DNA of 64,000 bases from an uncultured Gammaproteobacteria bacterium (GCA_964503955.1 CAZDCG010000001.1:2962-66961); one strand, 5' to 3'. Positions 20,494 through 44,133 are shown, numbered from the stretch's first letter. A program made the numbers and translations. Notes: generated by a model not told the origin, from the letters alone.

Positions 20494-20567
20494 ATGGTTC
20501 CCGGGCAGGGACTCGAACCCCGATACCCAGGACCAAAACCTGGTGTCCTACCATTAGACGACCCGGG
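20494..20567 (-). tRNA. tRNA-Gln (anticodon UUG), CCA encoded
   Basis: Hand-folded cloverleaf: acceptor TCCCGGG/CCCGGGA (U1:A72 as in bacterial tRNA-Gln). D-arm GTCT/GGAC. Anticodon stem CCAGG/CCTGG with loop TTTTGGT. T-arm CGGGG-TTCGAGT-CCCTG. Discriminator A plus CCA. Confidence 0.85.
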
Positions 20568-20811
20568 AGCGAGCAATAAGTTGTTTCTTTTCTTCTCGTC
20601 CGATACCGGACTTTAGATATAGTTCACGATTTCTGGCATCGCTCTCATTTTCAAATGGTTCAGTATGGACTATATCTAAAGGCCTATATCCTTTTGTTGA
20701 TCTCACTTTGCCCTGCTGATGCTCTTTAAACCTGCGATCAATATCTGATGTACAACCAACATATGACCACGGCCGCTTTTCTCTGCTTCTGAGAATATAT
20801 ACATAGAACAT
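20554..20811 (-). CDS. GIY-YIG nuclease (YhbQ/COG2827-like), gene abutting/overlapping the 5' end of tRNA-Gln
   Basis: MFYVYILRSREKRPWSYVGCTSDIDRRFKEHQQGK...RELYLKSG is a GIY-YIG domain. The start is set at MFYVYIL, because the ORF-track extension upstream translates a pseudo-tRNA fragment. The stop lies 14 nt inside the tRNA. Confidence 0.75.
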   Translation of the reverse strand: MFYVYILRSREKRPWSYVGCTSDIDRRFKEHQQGKVRSTKGYRPLDIVHTEPFENESDARNRELYLKSGIGREEKKQLIARSRVV

Positions 20812-20822
20812 ACCATATGGAT

Positions 20823-20905
20823 CCAGGACCCCTGCCTGCCGGCAGGCAGGAAAACCTGGTGTCCTATTTACCCGCCGAAGGAGGGCTATTAGACGACCCG
20901 GGAGC
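20823..20905 (-). pseudogene. Degenerate 5' fragment of tRNA-Gln (acceptor + D-arm + anticodon arm), carrying a D-loop insertion and a 20-nt perfect palindrome in the anticodon loop
   Basis: The reverse complement reads TCCCGGGTCGTCTAAT[AGCCCTCCTTCGGCGGGTAAAT]AGGACACCAGGTTTT[CCTGCCTGCCGGCAGGCAGG]GGTCCTGG. Outside the bracketed insertions it is colinear with tRNA-Gln positions 1-43. There is no T-arm or 3' acceptor. Confidence 0.6.
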
Positions 20906-20974
20906 AATATTGAGTTGTGATATACATATTCCCAGATCCTACCATTCTGCCTAATATAAATGATAATAGCGGCA

Positions 20975-21015
20975 GTCCGCCTTAGGCGGAAGACGACCCG
21001 GGAGCGAGCAATAAG
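20975..21015 (-). repeat. Second duplicated copy of the tRNA-Gln 5' leader + first 13 nt, fused to a CCGCC-TTA-GGCGG hairpin
   Basis: agacgacccgggagcgagcaataag (20991-21015) is 25/25 identical to 20555-20579, the real tRNA 5' end plus 12-nt leader. Confidence 0.6.
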
Positions 21016-26046: not shown

Positions 26047-26116
26047 ATCTTGATTTTGCTCCAAATTTTTGTTACATTATCCATACATGAGCGCAGAGAG
26101 GCGCTCTCTTTATTTG

Positions 26117-26137
26117 CCGACGTAGCTCAGCCGGTAC
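26117..26137 (+). other. tRNA 5'-half-like fragment (acceptor + D-arm: GCCGACGTAGCTCAGCCGGTA) upstream of GIY-YIG gene
   Basis: Matches tRNA-Thr positions 1-21 at 16/21 nt. It is followed by a GC hairpin and AAGGAG 8 nt before the GIY-YIG ATG. Confidence 0.45.
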
Positions 26138-26186
26138 CCTCCGCCCATCGCTCACGCTTAGAGCCGGCGGGCAAGGAGCAATCATT

Positions 26187-26435
26187 ATGCTGGAAGACTT
26201 TTATTATACCTACGTCTTGCTGTGTGCTGATGATATGCTCTATATTGGCTATACTGATAACCTGCCTCAACGAATGCAAGCGCATCAAGATGGACTTGTT
26301 ACCGCGACAAAAAAACGTCGACCGATGCGCCTTGTCTATTTCGAAGCATGCACCAGTCAGAAAAGCGCAATAAAGAGAGAAAAATACTTCAAAACAGGCT
26401 TTGGACGTTCATTCCTCAAAAAGAGATTATCTTAA
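26187..26435 (+). CDS. GIY-YIG nuclease (YhbQ/COG2827-like), stop codon directly abutting tRNA-Thr
   Basis: YTYVLLCADDMLYIGYTDNLPQRMQAHQDG...REKYFKTG. AAGGAG Shine-Dalgarno 8 nt upstream. The TAA stop at 26433-26435 and tRNA nucleotide 1 at 26436. Confidence 0.8.
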   Translation: MLEDFYYTYVLLCADDMLYIGYTDNLPQRMQAHQDGLVTATKKRRPMRLVYFEACTSQKSAIKREKYFKTGFGRSFLKKRLS

Positions 26436-26511
26436 GCCACCTTAGCTCAGCTGGTAGAGCAATGCTTTCGTAAAGCAGAGGTCGGCGGTTCGAATCCGCC
26501 AGGTGGCTCCA
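26436..26511 (+). tRNA. tRNA-Thr (anticodon CGU), CCA encoded
   Basis: Acceptor GCCACCT/AGGTGGC. D-arm GCTC-AGCTGGTA-GAGC. Anticodon arm with loop TTCGTAA (U33, A37). Variable AGGTC. T-arm GGCGG-TTCGAAT-CCGCC. Discriminator T, then CCA. Confidence 0.85.
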
Positions 26512-26860
26512 TTTCATACATAACATCCCCTGCCCGCCTGTGTTGACGAGCGTTAGCGAGAATGCACGGCGGGGCCAGGTGGCTCCATTTCGTACATAAC
26601 ATCCCCTGCCCGCCAGTGCTGACGAGCGTTAGCGAGGATGCACGGCGGGGCCAGGTGGCTCCATTTCATACATAACATCCCCTGCCCGCCTGTGTTGACG
26701 AGCGTTAGCGAGAATGCACGGCGGGGCCAGGTGGCTCCATTTCATACACAACGCCCTCTAATCGTCTCCAGTAACCAAGCAAGGCGACTACATATCATCC
26801 CCTGCCCGCCTGTGCTGACGAGCGATCAACGACGGCGTGCGGGAGGCCATTCTCAAACAA
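26496..26860 (+). repeat. Tandem direct repeat, ~76-bp unit x 3 full + 1 degenerate copy, each unit starting with the last 16 nt of tRNA-Thr
   Basis: The string ccaggtggctcca recurs at 26500, 26575, 26651 and 26727. The unit is the tRNA 3' end, then an AT-rich 16-mer, then the hairpin CCCGCC-N29-GGCGGG. The ORF 26638..26874 is an artefact of the repeat. Confidence 0.8.
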
Positions 26861-26880
26861 GACAACAAGAGTAATACATC

Positions 26881-26916
26881 AAAAAACAGCCCGCATGATG
26901 AGGCTGCTTTTTGTTT
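26881..26916. terminator. Bidirectional terminator hairpin (CAGCCC-gcatgatga-GGCTG, A/T flanks)
   Basis: Between the repeat array and the ftsB-like gene end. Confidence 0.45.
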
Positions 26917-26923
26917 CGTTCAA

Positions 26924-27334
26924 TCAACTTTGAAAGAAATAGCGCCACCACAAAACCGGGTTTGAAGCGCCTTCCTCTTGCTTATACGAATACGACGGTT
27001 CCTCAAAAAGCCCGGGCTCCTCATTTGGCGGTTCATCGGTAATCACGATCATCTTTTCGCCCGGCTTTTTCAGTCCCAGTTTTAACCGCGCCTGCTCTTC
27101 AAATGAATTTTCCGTTTTAAGGAATTCAACAAATCTTGAAAAATCATTGGTCTTCACTTCCAATTCAGTAATCTCCTGTTCAAGAGCCTGGATTTCCTGT
27201 TTGATCTGGTAACTTCGCATCAATTCCTTGACGAGGGACGCAGAAATCAGGAGAAATAAAACCGCCAGGGTCAACAGAAACCAGCGTGAGAAAAACCAAT
27301 GCTGCCTTCTTTCCTGGCGGCTTCGCGGTCGCAT
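26924..27334 (-). CDS. ftsB: Septum formation initiator family protein (FtsB/DivIC-like)
   Basis: Single N-terminal TM, then a coiled coil (YQIKQEIQALEQEITELEVK) and FtsB-like LKLGLKKPGEKMIVI. Confidence 0.7.
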   Translation of the reverse strand: MRPRSRQERRQHWFFSRWFLLTLAVLFLLISASLVKELMRSYQIKQEIQALEQEITELEVKTNDFSRFVEFLKTENSFEEQARLKLGLKKPGEKMIVITDEPPNEEPGLFEEPSYSYKQEEGASNPVLWWRYFFQS

Positions 27335-27338
27335 AGTG

Positions 27339-42597: not shown

Positions 42598-42985
42598 TTC
42601 TTCTCAGACCGGATCATAAGCCGAATTCTGTTTCCGCTAAAAGCGGACGATAGCCATCTATCTGGGATGCCTGTTGCCAGACACCTCGAGCGCGCTACCA
42701 AATTTGCGCTTGCACCAGGCAGGGTTTACCGCAAACATCGCTCACGCGATGCCGACAGGCGTAGCATGGCAACTGACCGGCCTTTGGGGCCGATAAGATG
42801 ATGACATACATCGCCTGACTTTTCACCTTTCTCCAGCGAAAAGCCGGATAGTATTGTCTCTGTGGCACTTTCCCTATGACGCTGTCGCCAGCGCCACGAT
42901 TTCATTTCGAAATTGCCTTTGGCCTCCGTAAAACGAAGGGGTGTTCGGACTTTCCTCCCAAAACCGCGCAATCGGTTCAAGATAC
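42598..42985 (-). ncRNA. rnpB: RNase P RNA (bacterial; type-B-like elements)
   Basis: The minus-strand transcript contains GGGAGGAAAGUCCGAAC (the conserved AGGAAAGUCCGGGC element, with GG>AA). It also has GGGAAAGUGCCACAGAGA, GCGGUAAACCC...CAAAUUUGGUAG, AGAUAGAUG and ACAGAAUUCGGCUUA (the ACAGAACCCGGCUUA element, with CC>UU compensating the GG>AA change). Ends are +/-20 nt. The ORFs 42577..42801 and 42726..42980 are spurious. Confidence 0.8.
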
Positions 42986-43068
42986 AGCCGTATCATAGCA
43001 TTTTGACGCTGTCTGGGCTATGCGACTGCTATTGAACGGAATGCGCGGCTTTGGGCGGCTATCTCACC

Positions 43069-44133
43069 GGTCTGAGAAGCAAACTATATCACAAATTGAG
43101 AAAATAGTCAACAAATTGGGGTAATGTGCAAATACATATGGCGGTTTTTGCCCTAGACGGTAAAGTCTGGGTATATGGCAATAAATATGGCAAAAACCAT
43201 TAAAGAAGAACGTCTGCGCTGGGTACTCCCCATCGCCCACAAGCAGATCAAATTAGTAGATGCTGCCAAAGTATGTCCATACGGTAAGCGCAGTCTTGAG
43301 CGCTGGGTAGCAGCATACAAAATATCCGGGGAACGCGCTTTAGCGCCAAAATCTACGCAACCCAAACGATACAACAGAGAAACACCCATCGCGACAAAAG
43401 AACAAATCATCGCTTTAAGAAAGAAAACCGGTCTCTGCGCCCAAAAGCTCCACTGGAGATTGCAAAAAGAAGGTGTCCAGGTACCAGTCCGCACCATTGG
43501 AAAAATCATTAAGCAAGAAGGACTTGTGCGTAGCTATAGAAAAAAGAAAGTAAAGTACAAATATATCAAAGCTGTACGTCAGCCCGGAGAATTGTTGGAA
43601 ATAGACGTGAAACACGTTCCGGGCCCAATTAATGGCCGTAAATATTACCAGTATACTGCCATAGATACCGCAAGCAGGTGGAGACACTTGGAAGTCTTTG
43701 ACGAAGAGTCATCGTTTCACGCCATCAAATTTCTCAGCATCGTTATGCATCGTTTCCCATATCCAATCACCGCCATTAAGACAGATAATCACTCCACATT
43801 CACGAATTACTATACCGGTACCAACAAACGGTCAGATGTAACCGTCAAAACGATTCATGCTTTAGATCAGTTCTGTGTAGAGCACGGAATTACCCATTAC
43901 CTCATTGACCCGGGTAAACCGGCACAGAACGGAACTGTTGAAAGGTCACACAGGGAAGACAACAGGCATCTTTATGGTAGATCATTTAATACAGTCATGG
44001 GATTACGACGAGCTATGAGGGTATGGAATACTCATTATAATGACCTGGAACACTGTGGCTTAGAAGGGAAATCACCAAATCAATTCCTTGAAGAATATCA
44101 GTTAAGCAAACCGCCAAAAGTGTTTGCCTAAAA
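43069..44133 (+). mobile_element. IS481-family insertion sequence (boundaries approximate)
   Basis: A single DDE transposase ORF. Imperfect terminal IR candidates (GAAGCAAACTAT / rc AGGCAAACACTT). Imperfect ~20-nt direct repeats TTGGGCGGsTATmTCA at 43049 and 44134. Confidence 0.4.
43175..44131 (+). CDS. IS481-family DDE transposase (HTH + rve integrase core)
   Basis: An N-terminal HTH. The rve core has D (IDVKHV), D (TDNHSTF) and E (NGTVERSHRE) spacing. A typical IS481 Orf of 318 aa. Confidence 0.9.
   Translation: MAINMAKTIKEERLRWVLPIAHKQIKLVDAAKVCPYGKRSLERWVAAYKISGERALAPKSTQPKRYNRETPIATKEQIIALRKKTGLCAQKLHWRLQKEGVQVPVRTIGKIIKQEGLVRSYRKKKVKYKYIKAVRQPGELLEIDVKHVPGPINGRKYYQYTAIDTASRWRHLEVFDEESSFHAIKFLSIVMHRFPYPITAIKTDNHSTFTNYYTGTNKRSDVTVKTIHALDQFCVEHGITHYLIDPGKPAQNGTVERSHREDNRHLYGRSFNTVMGLRRAMRVWNTHYNDLEHCGLEGKSPNQFLEEYQLSKPPKVFA

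Follow-up and report, generated by a model that had tools for sequence, protein, structure and literature searches.

A 76-bp tandem array behind a tRNA-Thr gene and its probable origin from a tRNA-linked GIY-YIG/hairpin module

Introduction

How does a tRNA gene come to be followed by several copies of its own 3' end? The question is raised by a stretch of 64,000 nucleotides from an uncultured gammaproteobacterium, here called the window, in which a tRNA-Thr gene continues directly into an array of repeats, each of them beginning with the end of that same tRNA. An earlier reading made from the sequence alone (the sequence-only reading) had offered two explanations: successive footprints of site-specific integration at the tRNA 3' end, or a satellite generated by slippage. 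It had also noted a GIY-YIG gene on the 5' side and regarded the tRNA as targeted from both ends. In the present analysis the array was compared with the rest of the window, with related loci in other genomes, and with the known systems that combine hairpins, small nucleases and tRNA genes.

Results

Structure of the array

Tandem Repeats Finder reported a period of 76 bp with 3.4 copies and 94% matches at 26498-26752. As assembled, the array was resolved into three complete units (A, B and C) and a degenerate fourth (Table 1), which agrees with the approximately four units with tRNA-Thr 3' ends recognised in the sequence-only reading. The stretch shared with the tRNA is GCCAGGTGGCTCCA, 14 nt instead of the 16 nt given there, and corresponds to tRNA-Thr positions 63-76 including the CCA. 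It occurs four times in the window (at 26498, 26574, 26650 and 26726), against 0 expected on the basis of shuffled sequences.

In each unit the 14-mer is followed by a 13-nt trailer, by ATCC (tRNA positions 59-62) and by a 45-nt GC-rich hairpin, designated HP. The flanks of the hairpin in unit A, ATCC and GCCAGG, are contiguous in tRNA-Thr, the hairpin separating positions 62 and 63. The ATCC directly 5' of the hairpin is the true T-arm remnant of the array unit, while the GGCGG earlier taken for a T-stem remnant belongs to the 3' arm of HP and does not derive from the tRNA. Units A and C are exactly identical, and unit B has four differing positions. Since there are no variable spacers and the whole 76-bp unit is repeated, also its non-tRNA part being 95-100% identical, the array is not a CRISPR, as had already been pointed out.

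The fourth unit includes a diverged copy of the hairpin within 26789-26845, and the likeness of its tail to the trailer was judged by eye from the sequence. The spacing between successive tRNA ends in the array is only 62 nt. That the units are about as long as a tRNA, which had been remarked on earlier, is a coincidence, because the same module is elsewhere spaced by ca. 114-157 nt. As ssDNA, the hairpin of the array unit was predicted to fold at -9.7 to -12 kcal/mol (z = -2.6).

The Rfam scan found nothing besides tRNA, neither at the gathering score nor at E ≤ 5. The array contains ORFs of 41 aa (minus strand) and 78 aa (plus strand) that matched no record anywhere searched, and for lack of such records a tpr-like peptide encoded by the array was rejected as unsupported.

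Table 1. Features of the tRNA-Thr locus and of the second module in the window, numbered from the first nucleotide of the window.
Feature	Position	Strand	Remarks
Lineage-specific 877-bp insertion between a convergent 176-aa gene and the DivIC gene	26047-26923	.	Holds the pseudo-fragment, hairpin, GIY-YIG gene, tRNA-Thr, array and terminator candidate
Pseudo-tRNA 5' fragment GCCGACGTAGCTCAGCCGGTA (acceptor 5' strand, D stem, D loop)	26116-26136	+	81% identical to tRNA-Thr 1-21
Degenerate 39-nt GC-rich hairpin in the D loop of the pseudo-fragment	26137-26175	+	Read from sequence
82-aa single-domain GIY-YIG nuclease gene	26187-26435	+	Pfam PF01541, E 1.8e-15, residues 6-72
Intact tRNA-Thr(CGU), CCA encoded	26436-26511	+	ARAGORN; Rfam tRNA 66.3 bits
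Three tandem 76-bp units: A 26498-26573, B 26574-26649, C 26650-26725	26498-26725	+	
HP hairpin of unit A (CCTGCCCGC...GCAcGGCGGG)	26529-26573	+	Other copies 26605-26649, 26681-26725
Degenerate fourth unit: tRNA 14-mer, trailer, extra ~43 nt (26753-26795), CATCC, hairpin 26801-26843, GCCA, trailer-like tail	26726-26870	+	
Possible bidirectional terminator AAAAAACAGCC-N10-GGCTGCTTTTTGTTT	26884-26915	+	Read from sequence; would terminate the tRNA/array unit as well as the convergent DivIC gene
Second module, same design	20495-21015	-	tRNA-Gln(UUG) 20495-20568; GIY-YIG ORF 20554-20811; pseudo 5' half 20823-20903; older fragment ~20991-21015

The GIY-YIG gene and the inserted block

On the 5' side, the stop codon of the 82-aa GIY-YIG gene abuts tRNA-Thr. 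The protein had 420 homologues, mostly in Patescibacteria and the others in Bacteroidota and further phyla, and NCBIfam included no model matching the GIY-YIG proteins. The pseudo-tRNA fragment upstream of the gene agrees in position and form with the 5' pseudo-copies of other loci. The hairpin in its D loop shows a weak fold and is followed by GAGCAAT (26176-26182), which corresponds to tRNA positions 22-28, the 3' strand of the D stem. The 3' arm of this hairpin, GCCGGCGGG, matches a hairpin subtype present in the locus of the closest homologue (L097, see below). Its local alignment with the array hairpin was no better than those of shuffles (152/2000), and for this reason the idea that the upstream hairpin is the array hairpin in inverted form, which would give the element terminal inverted repeats, is not put forward. 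Element-derived sequence is thus found on both sides of the tRNA, the GIY-YIG cassette 5' and the hairpin modules 3', and in this sense the view that the tRNA is targeted from both ends was borne out.

The whole block was missing at the same site in four relatives (L007, L008/L009, L010). In these, the orthologues of the two flanking genes, with protein identities of 57-65%, are also convergent, their ends lie 1-4 nt apart, and there is no tRNA between them. Because of these nearly adjoining gene ends, 26047-26923 is considered a lineage-specific block which includes a complete tRNA gene. The terminator candidate near the end of the block was not called by the consensus scan because its loop is longer than 8 nt.

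The second module of the window, at tRNA-Gln, is of the same design (Table 1). Its GIY-YIG ORF ends within the D loop of tRNA-Gln, and the pseudo 5' half carries a D-loop insertion together with a perfect 20-nt palindrome (20831-20850) in the anticodon. The relative L008 has the same tRNA-Gln module architecture and also the same palindrome, and its pseudo-half matches its own tRNA-Gln, the sequence of which differs from that of the window. In L008, a hairpin together with the terminal 15 nt of the tRNA follows 131 nt downstream.

Related loci in other genomes

The comparison included 80 loci from species-representative genomes, each of ca. 5 kb (357 kb of related loci in total). A tRNA gene on the same strand, starting at most ca. 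120 nt past the end of the GIY-YIG match, was found in 48 of the 80 loci, and the tRNAs beside the GIY-YIG genes represented at least 14 identities. In five loci of the Verrucomicrobia/Lentisphaerae type, tRNA-Val preceded the GIY-YIG gene. The first 12-21 nt of the tRNA were repeated just 5' of the ORF in at least 20 loci, and the tRNA 3' end was repeated ca. 100-150 nt downstream in at least seven; in the tRNA-first loci it was repeated after the ORF. In relatives with ca. 60% identity in a neighbouring protein, the partial copies remained identical to the tRNA of the genome concerned.

The partial tRNA copies were interrupted by hairpins of one family, HP, with the form CCYGCCYGC...GCRGGCRGG and a length of 36-62 nt. 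In 27 of the 44 HP hairpins both 8-nt flanks were adjacent in the neighbouring intact tRNA (gap = 1), so that these 27 represent clean insertions, with no duplication of the target. They were located at positions 9-23 (8-9 linker and D arm), 33 and 38 (anticodon loop), and 50 and 67 (T arm). HPs were found in both orientations and some of them were nested in one another's loops, which argues for an element acting at the DNA level rather than for an oriented RNA motif.

Several loci included a single module in which trailer, hairpin and tRNA 3' end succeed one another as in the unit of the window. The most instructive was L097, the closest GIY-YIG homologue (68% identity), in which hairpins lie on both sides of a GIY-YIG/tRNA-Arg pair. 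There, tRNA-Arg is followed by an 11-nt trailer, the T-loop remnant TTCGATTCC and a pair of hairpins, after which the tRNA 3' end and the trailer recur, and one of the hairpins is of the window subtype (CCCGCCTGT...ACGGCGGG). A tandem array of the module was present in none of the ca. 60 other tRNA/GIY-YIG loci sampled, and among these loci its amplification in the window is a one-off.

The relation of the array hairpins to the HP family was examined with a covariance model, which was built of 33 hairpins from other genomes only and run unfiltered on the 64-kb window. Its five best distinct sites were the palindrome in the pseudo-anticodon of tRNA-Gln (E = 0.018) and the four array hairpins (E = 0.25-1.3, each weak); despite the weak E-values, the location of the sites is not random. 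The limits of the HP in unit A (26529-26573) are those given by this model. The motif CCYGCCYGC occurred 10 times in the window against 2.1 expected, and six of the 10 occurrences were at the two GIY-YIG/tRNA loci. The window also agrees with the GIY-YIG-tRNA-HP module of CPR and Verrucomicrobia, a class defined in this analysis with a single-domain GIY-YIG gene of ca. 80 aa, since an ORF abuts an intact tRNA and a partial tRNA copy has a clean HP insertion. By its sequence, the unit of the window is recognisable as a 3' version of this module, composed of trailer, ATCC as T-arm remnant, HP and tRNA 63-76.

Comparison with known systems

Ssn nucleases are small single-domain GIY-YIG proteins that cleave ssDNA adjacent to a hairpin, and hairpin repeats lie on either side of their genes (PMC11893778). 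SsnA belongs to cd10448, and the dRS3/NTS hairpin arrays of Neisseria adjoin ssnA (Chenal et al. 2025, PMC11893778); tRNA and Patescibacteria are mentioned nowhere in that paper. The window gene resembles the Ssn genes in encoding a single GIY-YIG domain, in its small size (82 aa, compared to ca. 80-100 aa) and in having hairpins on both sides, the repeats at Ssn genes being of 20-50 nt, the order HP-GIY-YIG-tRNA-HPx4 corresponding to NTS-ssnA-NTS; the same is true of L097. Furthermore, the gonococcal ssnA locus also holds a tandem hairpin array with a period of ca. 74 bp beside the gene. In a separate control with the NTS consensus, allowing at most three mismatches, this locus had 14 NTS copies in 1.76 kb.

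There are also differences. The hairpin motif of the window is unrelated to the published SRM, the pattern of which (HGTCWY...RNCYNB) had 0 matches in the window and in the 357 kb of the 80 related loci. In the sampled sequences (the 64-kb window and the 5-kb loci), HP hairpins were few and almost only inside tRNA-derived fragments, whereas Ssn systems have hundreds of intergenic copies. Also the placement of the gene against an intact tRNA gene is unlike Ssn. In BLASTP the window protein matched SsnA of N. gonorrhoeae with 38% identity (E 8e-9) and that of Aeromonas with 43% (E 1e-9), with 53 aa aligned, but a UPF0213-type protein scored better (E 1e-14), and the PDB matches were of UPF0213 as well. 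On sequence similarity, the window protein appears at least as close to the UPF0213 type as to Ssn, the similarity to which is modest. By analogy, the system would resemble Ssn/NTS in the way it works, a likeness that falls short of established membership in that family. On a Sphingomonas plasmid, an NTS cluster had no GIY-YIG gene nearby; the GIY-YIG match in Sphingomonas was a UPF0213-type gene with a different hairpin.

The closest counterpart of the array itself is tyrT-rtT of Escherichia coli. Downstream of tyrV there is an array of a 178-bp unit (3.1 copies), every copy of which closes with the final 19 nt of tRNA-Tyr, and on inspection the unit proved to have a pseudo T arm (AAGGTTCGA...AATCCTTCC...CCA) split by an inverted-repeat insertion of 67 nt. 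Its copy number was 1-9 in 4726 genomes. The two arrays thus have in common the tandem arrangement of about three copies directly 3' of a tRNA gene, the 3'-terminal tRNA segment with CCA in each unit (19 nt compared to 14 nt in the window), and a GC-rich hairpin inserted in the pseudo T arm or T loop. They differ in the length of the unit, 178 bp compared to 76 bp, and have no sequence similarity, Rfam RtT having no match in the window at E ≤ 5. No GIY-YIG gene is annotated in a 3-kb stretch around the E. coli array.

The REP/BIME-RAYT systems are similar in that hairpins are inserted without target duplication and form small arrays beside the gene of the nuclease that presumably moves them. 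Their nuclease is of the HUH fold (IS200/IS605-like Y1) instead of GIY-YIG, and the targets in the present case are tRNA fragments. A RAYT-like gene with arrays of its own is located 4 kb from the 76-bp array. However, in a BLAST search of the window the array unit had no match in 30543-31965, the repeats flanking the RAYT gene, and the involvement of RAYT/REP in the array was rejected because no sequence is shared.

SegB of phage T4 is described as a free-standing GIY-YIG homing endonuclease in a tRNA cluster (PMC2330249). It is comparable in being a GIY-YIG gene among tRNA genes that spreads with flanking tRNA sequence. Enzymes of the SegB type are larger proteins with DNA-binding domains, and hairpin insertions or partial tRNA duplications are not known to have been described for them.

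Explanations for the array

We consider it likely on the basis of the sequence comparisons, with a rough probability of 0.6, that the array is a locally amplified module of a selfish element of tRNA genes, consisting of a small GIY-YIG nuclease and its cognate hairpin. The architecture of the locus, the clean insertions, the tie to the nuclease gene and the confinement of the block to this lineage, on which this explanation builds, are demonstrated by the comparisons above.

It is unlikely that each unit would represent a separate ORF-less element which was inserted site-specifically into the regenerated tRNA 3' end, either by a classical integrase or by the GIY-YIG/hairpin system. Each such event would regenerate an intact tRNA end, so that topology permits its repetition. 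Several genomes have single modules of this sort, in which the hairpin is inserted as a discrete piece, and if a 76-bp mini-element had been re-inserted serially, the outcome would look like that of unequal crossing-over. The repeated tRNA 3' ends do resemble the traces left by mobile elements that target tRNAs, and to this extent the idea of integration footprints stands, but its integrase/attB part found no support. Tyrosine or serine recombinases were not found in the Pfam scan of 16 window ORFs, which gave a DDE rve transposase (43175-44131) and a RAYT-like Y1 gene. An attP was not found among viral contigs either, the 3' 23-mer of tRNA-Thr having 0 matches in 2.9 million of them. The short spacing is also against attB scars, and the high identity of the units fits amplification of one module. 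The A-B-A pattern formed by the identical units A and C fits recombination within the array at least equally well, and the ca. 60 other loci held no multi-copy array. With integrative elements in general the locus shares the direct repeat of a tRNA 3' segment and the intact tRNA regenerated at one junction; it differs from them in that the scanned ORFs included no such recombinase and there is no kb-scale insert, that duplications also involve the 5' and middle parts of tRNAs, and that the junctions hold a discrete hairpin insertion.

The folding predictions bear on the question whether the array is a functional RNA. As RNA, each unit folded into a long stem in which the 3' strand is the tRNA acceptor strand and CUCCA is left single-stranded. 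The array could thus be processed to minihelices ending in NCCA, i.e. mimics of the acceptor arm, or act as an RtT-like regulatory or decoy sRNA (for RNase P, the CCA-adding enzyme or ThrRS). The array is situated after the tRNA gene and before the possible terminator, which is why it is probably transcribed as a tRNA trailer, and an sRNA annotation exists for its closest analogue, rtT of E. coli, the transcript of which has been studied. We regard a functional RNA as quite unlikely, however, since the RNA folds of the units were modest (z = -1.6 to -1.7), there was no Rfam match, the hairpin family elsewhere has both orientations relative to transcription, and the array is missing in the relatives and its fourth unit is decaying. 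The fold of the whole array as RNA was no better than those of shuffles (z = -0.8). The array is assumed to have no function of its own.

Very unlikely is a plain satellite produced by slippage or unequal crossing-over, in which the tRNA end and a terminator-like hairpin downstream of it would by chance have shared a microhomology (GCCA/CAGG) that started the duplication, and the GIY-YIG gene would have no part. There is indeed a short homology at the junction, CCAGG in the tRNA and in the 3' end of the hairpin, and the last unit retains a different downstream flank, as predicted by simple tandem duplication. Against this, the hairpin family is specifically tied to GIY-YIG/tRNA modules in other genomes, and the flanks ATCC and GCCAGG meet in the tRNA in the same way as those of the clean insertions elsewhere. 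The slippage satellite of the sequence-only reading thus comes closer for the last step of the process, but the unit that was multiplied is a pre-existing element module known from other genomes.

The array is real and not an assembly artefact. Short-read contigs did not traverse it: five Logan contigs from different runs carry the upstream gene, and four of them end at 26527, which is the last 31-mer unique to the tRNA context, while the fifth (L002) ends 8 nt earlier, at 26519. These ends coincide with the k-mer boundary that was predicted, or precede it by 8 nt. The units are told apart by four SNPs, and the order tRNA-A-B-C-D should be resolvable with 150-nt reads. The independent contig L006 corresponds to window positions 26719-30592 and includes the junction from hairpin to tRNA end (CGGCGGGG followed by CCAGGTGGCTCCA). 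In the JGI metagenome contigs the junction 20-mer had a single match, which was unrelated and due to chance. That one copy was expanded in assembly, or that the copy number differs, is extremely improbable in view of these SNPs, the independently assembled junction and the positions of the contig ends.

Discussion

If the array is an amplified module of a GIY-YIG/hairpin element, its history could have been as follows. The 82-aa protein would act like the Ssn nucleases, by analogy with which it may bind the hairpin in ssDNA and nick beside it. Such nicks would leave recombinogenic ends within sequence homologous to tRNA, and these could recombine with tRNA genes. In this manner the element would enter a tRNA gene by single-crossover or homing-like recombination and leave behind an intact tRNA and a partial copy bearing the hairpin. 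A single crossover between a hairpin-interrupted tRNA fragment carried by the element and the resident tRNA would produce both of the layouts, partial copy-GIY-YIG-tRNA and tRNA-(GIY-YIG)-partial copy, and only outcomes keeping one intact tRNA would survive.

In the window, the 14-nt tRNA end, the trailer and the hairpin form direct repeats, through which unequal recombination or slippage could then have multiplied the 76-bp unit, so that three young copies now stand beside an earlier one that has decayed. The amplification may have been promoted by nicks made at the hairpins.

On its own, the array is probably a small, neutral satellite, and it is a variant of kinds already known, namely hairpin arrays associated with nucleases and repeats of tRNA trailers. 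GIY-YIG-tRNA gene fusions or hairpins inside tRNA fragments were not described in the literature searched in full text, a result of incomplete coverage which is absence of evidence only. We suggest only tentatively that the element might represent an unrecognised class of mobile elements based on ssDNA, with tRNA genes as the landing site. The nuclease would then nick beside hairpins situated in the unpaired regions of tRNA-shaped ssDNA, and the element would enter by means of its own tRNA fragment, always leaving one intact tRNA; it could also bring a complete tRNA gene with it to another site, as may have happened in the window. The array would in that case have arisen by re-insertion or amplification of an ORF-less mini-element, and the tyrT-rtT repeats of E. 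coli would be a relic of the same process.

The main interest of the array is that it exposes a wider, little studied element in which GIY-YIG genes and hairpins are linked to tRNA genes. In Patescibacteria and in some Verrucomicrobia and Lentisphaerae, a tiny GIY-YIG gene is repeatedly joined to tRNA genes, and in the partial tRNA copies the hairpins are cleanly inserted exactly where the cloverleaf is unpaired. This would connect the Ssn nucleases, which act on ssDNA and were described only recently, with a definite target in the genome. For annotation it means that such loci yield pseudo-tRNA calls and break short-read assemblies. Repeats of tRNA trailers such as rtT of E. coli may have originated from elements of this type, and the element gives a testable account of how tRNA genes may be duplicated, moved and decorated in very small genomes.

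Insertion of the tRNA-Thr block

The whole block 26047-26923, with a complete tRNA-Thr gene in it, is an insertion that separates two convergent genes; in four relatives these genes directly adjoin each other. Near each end of the block there is a similar 13-mer, TTTTTGTT(A/T)C(A/G)TT (26066-26078 and 26908-26920). The window has a strong strand bias, with 47 of its 49 large ORFs on the minus strand, and the tRNA-Thr/GIY-YIG block and the gene of the 176-aa protein are among its few plus-strand features. Within the array, the degenerate fourth unit contains 43 extra nucleotides (26753-26795) including ATCGTCTCC...AAGG, which is similar to the beginning of the tRNA-Gln pseudo-fragment together with its D-loop insertion in the relative L008. 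These nucleotides may be left over from another module, or the resemblance may be due to chance.

The tRNA-Gln module

Also tRNA-Gln(UUG) has a GIY-YIG cassette of its own, located on the minus strand at 20495-21015. The third, older copy found there suggests nested insertions at this module.

Features of the tRNA-Gln module and of the transposase loci in the window
Feature	Position	Strand	Remarks
GIY-YIG ORF of the tRNA-Gln cassette	20554-20811	minus	stop codon within the tRNA D loop
Pseudo 5' half of tRNA-Gln		minus	21-nt D-loop insertion
Perfect 20-nt palindrome in the pseudo 5' half	20831-20850	minus	splits the anticodon
Third, older copy of GIY-YIG C-terminus and tRNA start	~20991-21015	minus	part of the tRNA-Gln module
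RAYT-like Y1 transposase ORF	30882-31442	minus	Pfam Y1_Tnp, E 7e-4, under the gathering score
RNase P RNA gene	42602-42995	minus	directly adjoins the DDE (rve) transposase gene
DDE (rve) IS-type transposase gene	43175-44131	plus	locus 42602-44131

The pseudo 5' half of the window (20823-20903) was compared with that of L008 (~1245-1330), both on the minus strand. The neighboring 176-aa proteins of these two relatives are only 59% identical, and also their tRNA-Gln sequences differ. Each pseudo 5' half is nevertheless identical to the tRNA-Gln of its own genome, which implies either that gene conversion has acted between pseudo-copy and tRNA-Gln or that the match is under selection.

RAYT-like locus in the window

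On either side of the RAYT-like ORF lies a tandem array whose units contain several hairpins (146 bp x 2.3 in one array, 115 bp x 3.5 in the other; 30543-31965), an arrangement similar to that of REP/BIME elements. The sequences of these arrays show no relation to the tRNA array.

Related hairpins and repeats in other genomes

In the Escherichia coli K-12 tyrT-rtT locus (L096; NC_000913.3, 1286709-1287328), each 178-bp repeat unit resembles a partial tRNA-Tyr (variable and T arms) whose T loop is interrupted by a 67-nt inverted-repeat insertion, and after it comes the 3' end of the tRNA. The insertion was found in 4726 of the 5426 E. coli genomes, 1-9 times per genome. The tyrT-rtT unit and the unit of the window look like one type of module.

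In two loci of other genomes, HP hairpins are nested within the loops of other HP hairpins (L034, 2391-2474; L083, 2360-2434), which suggests that HP insertion favours unpaired loops of folded single-stranded DNA. Beyond Patescibacteria, the same GIY-YIG gene and hairpin family are present in an Akkermansia muciniphila MAG (L011, 2408-2815) and in L078. Both have a mirrored layout, in which tRNA-Val comes first, then the GIY-YIG gene, then an incomplete copy of the tRNA that the hairpin interrupts in the T stem or the anticodon loop; in L011 a 20-nt trailer is duplicated as well. In a Sphingomonas parapaucimobilis plasmid (L092, 1351-1500), a UPF0213-type GIY-YIG gene has a long inverted repeat of another kind, CTTCGACTTCGCTCAGCCTGAACGG...CCGTTCAGGCTGAGCGAAGTCGAAG, ahead of it. 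Cognate hairpins may occur also in other small GIY-YIG families.
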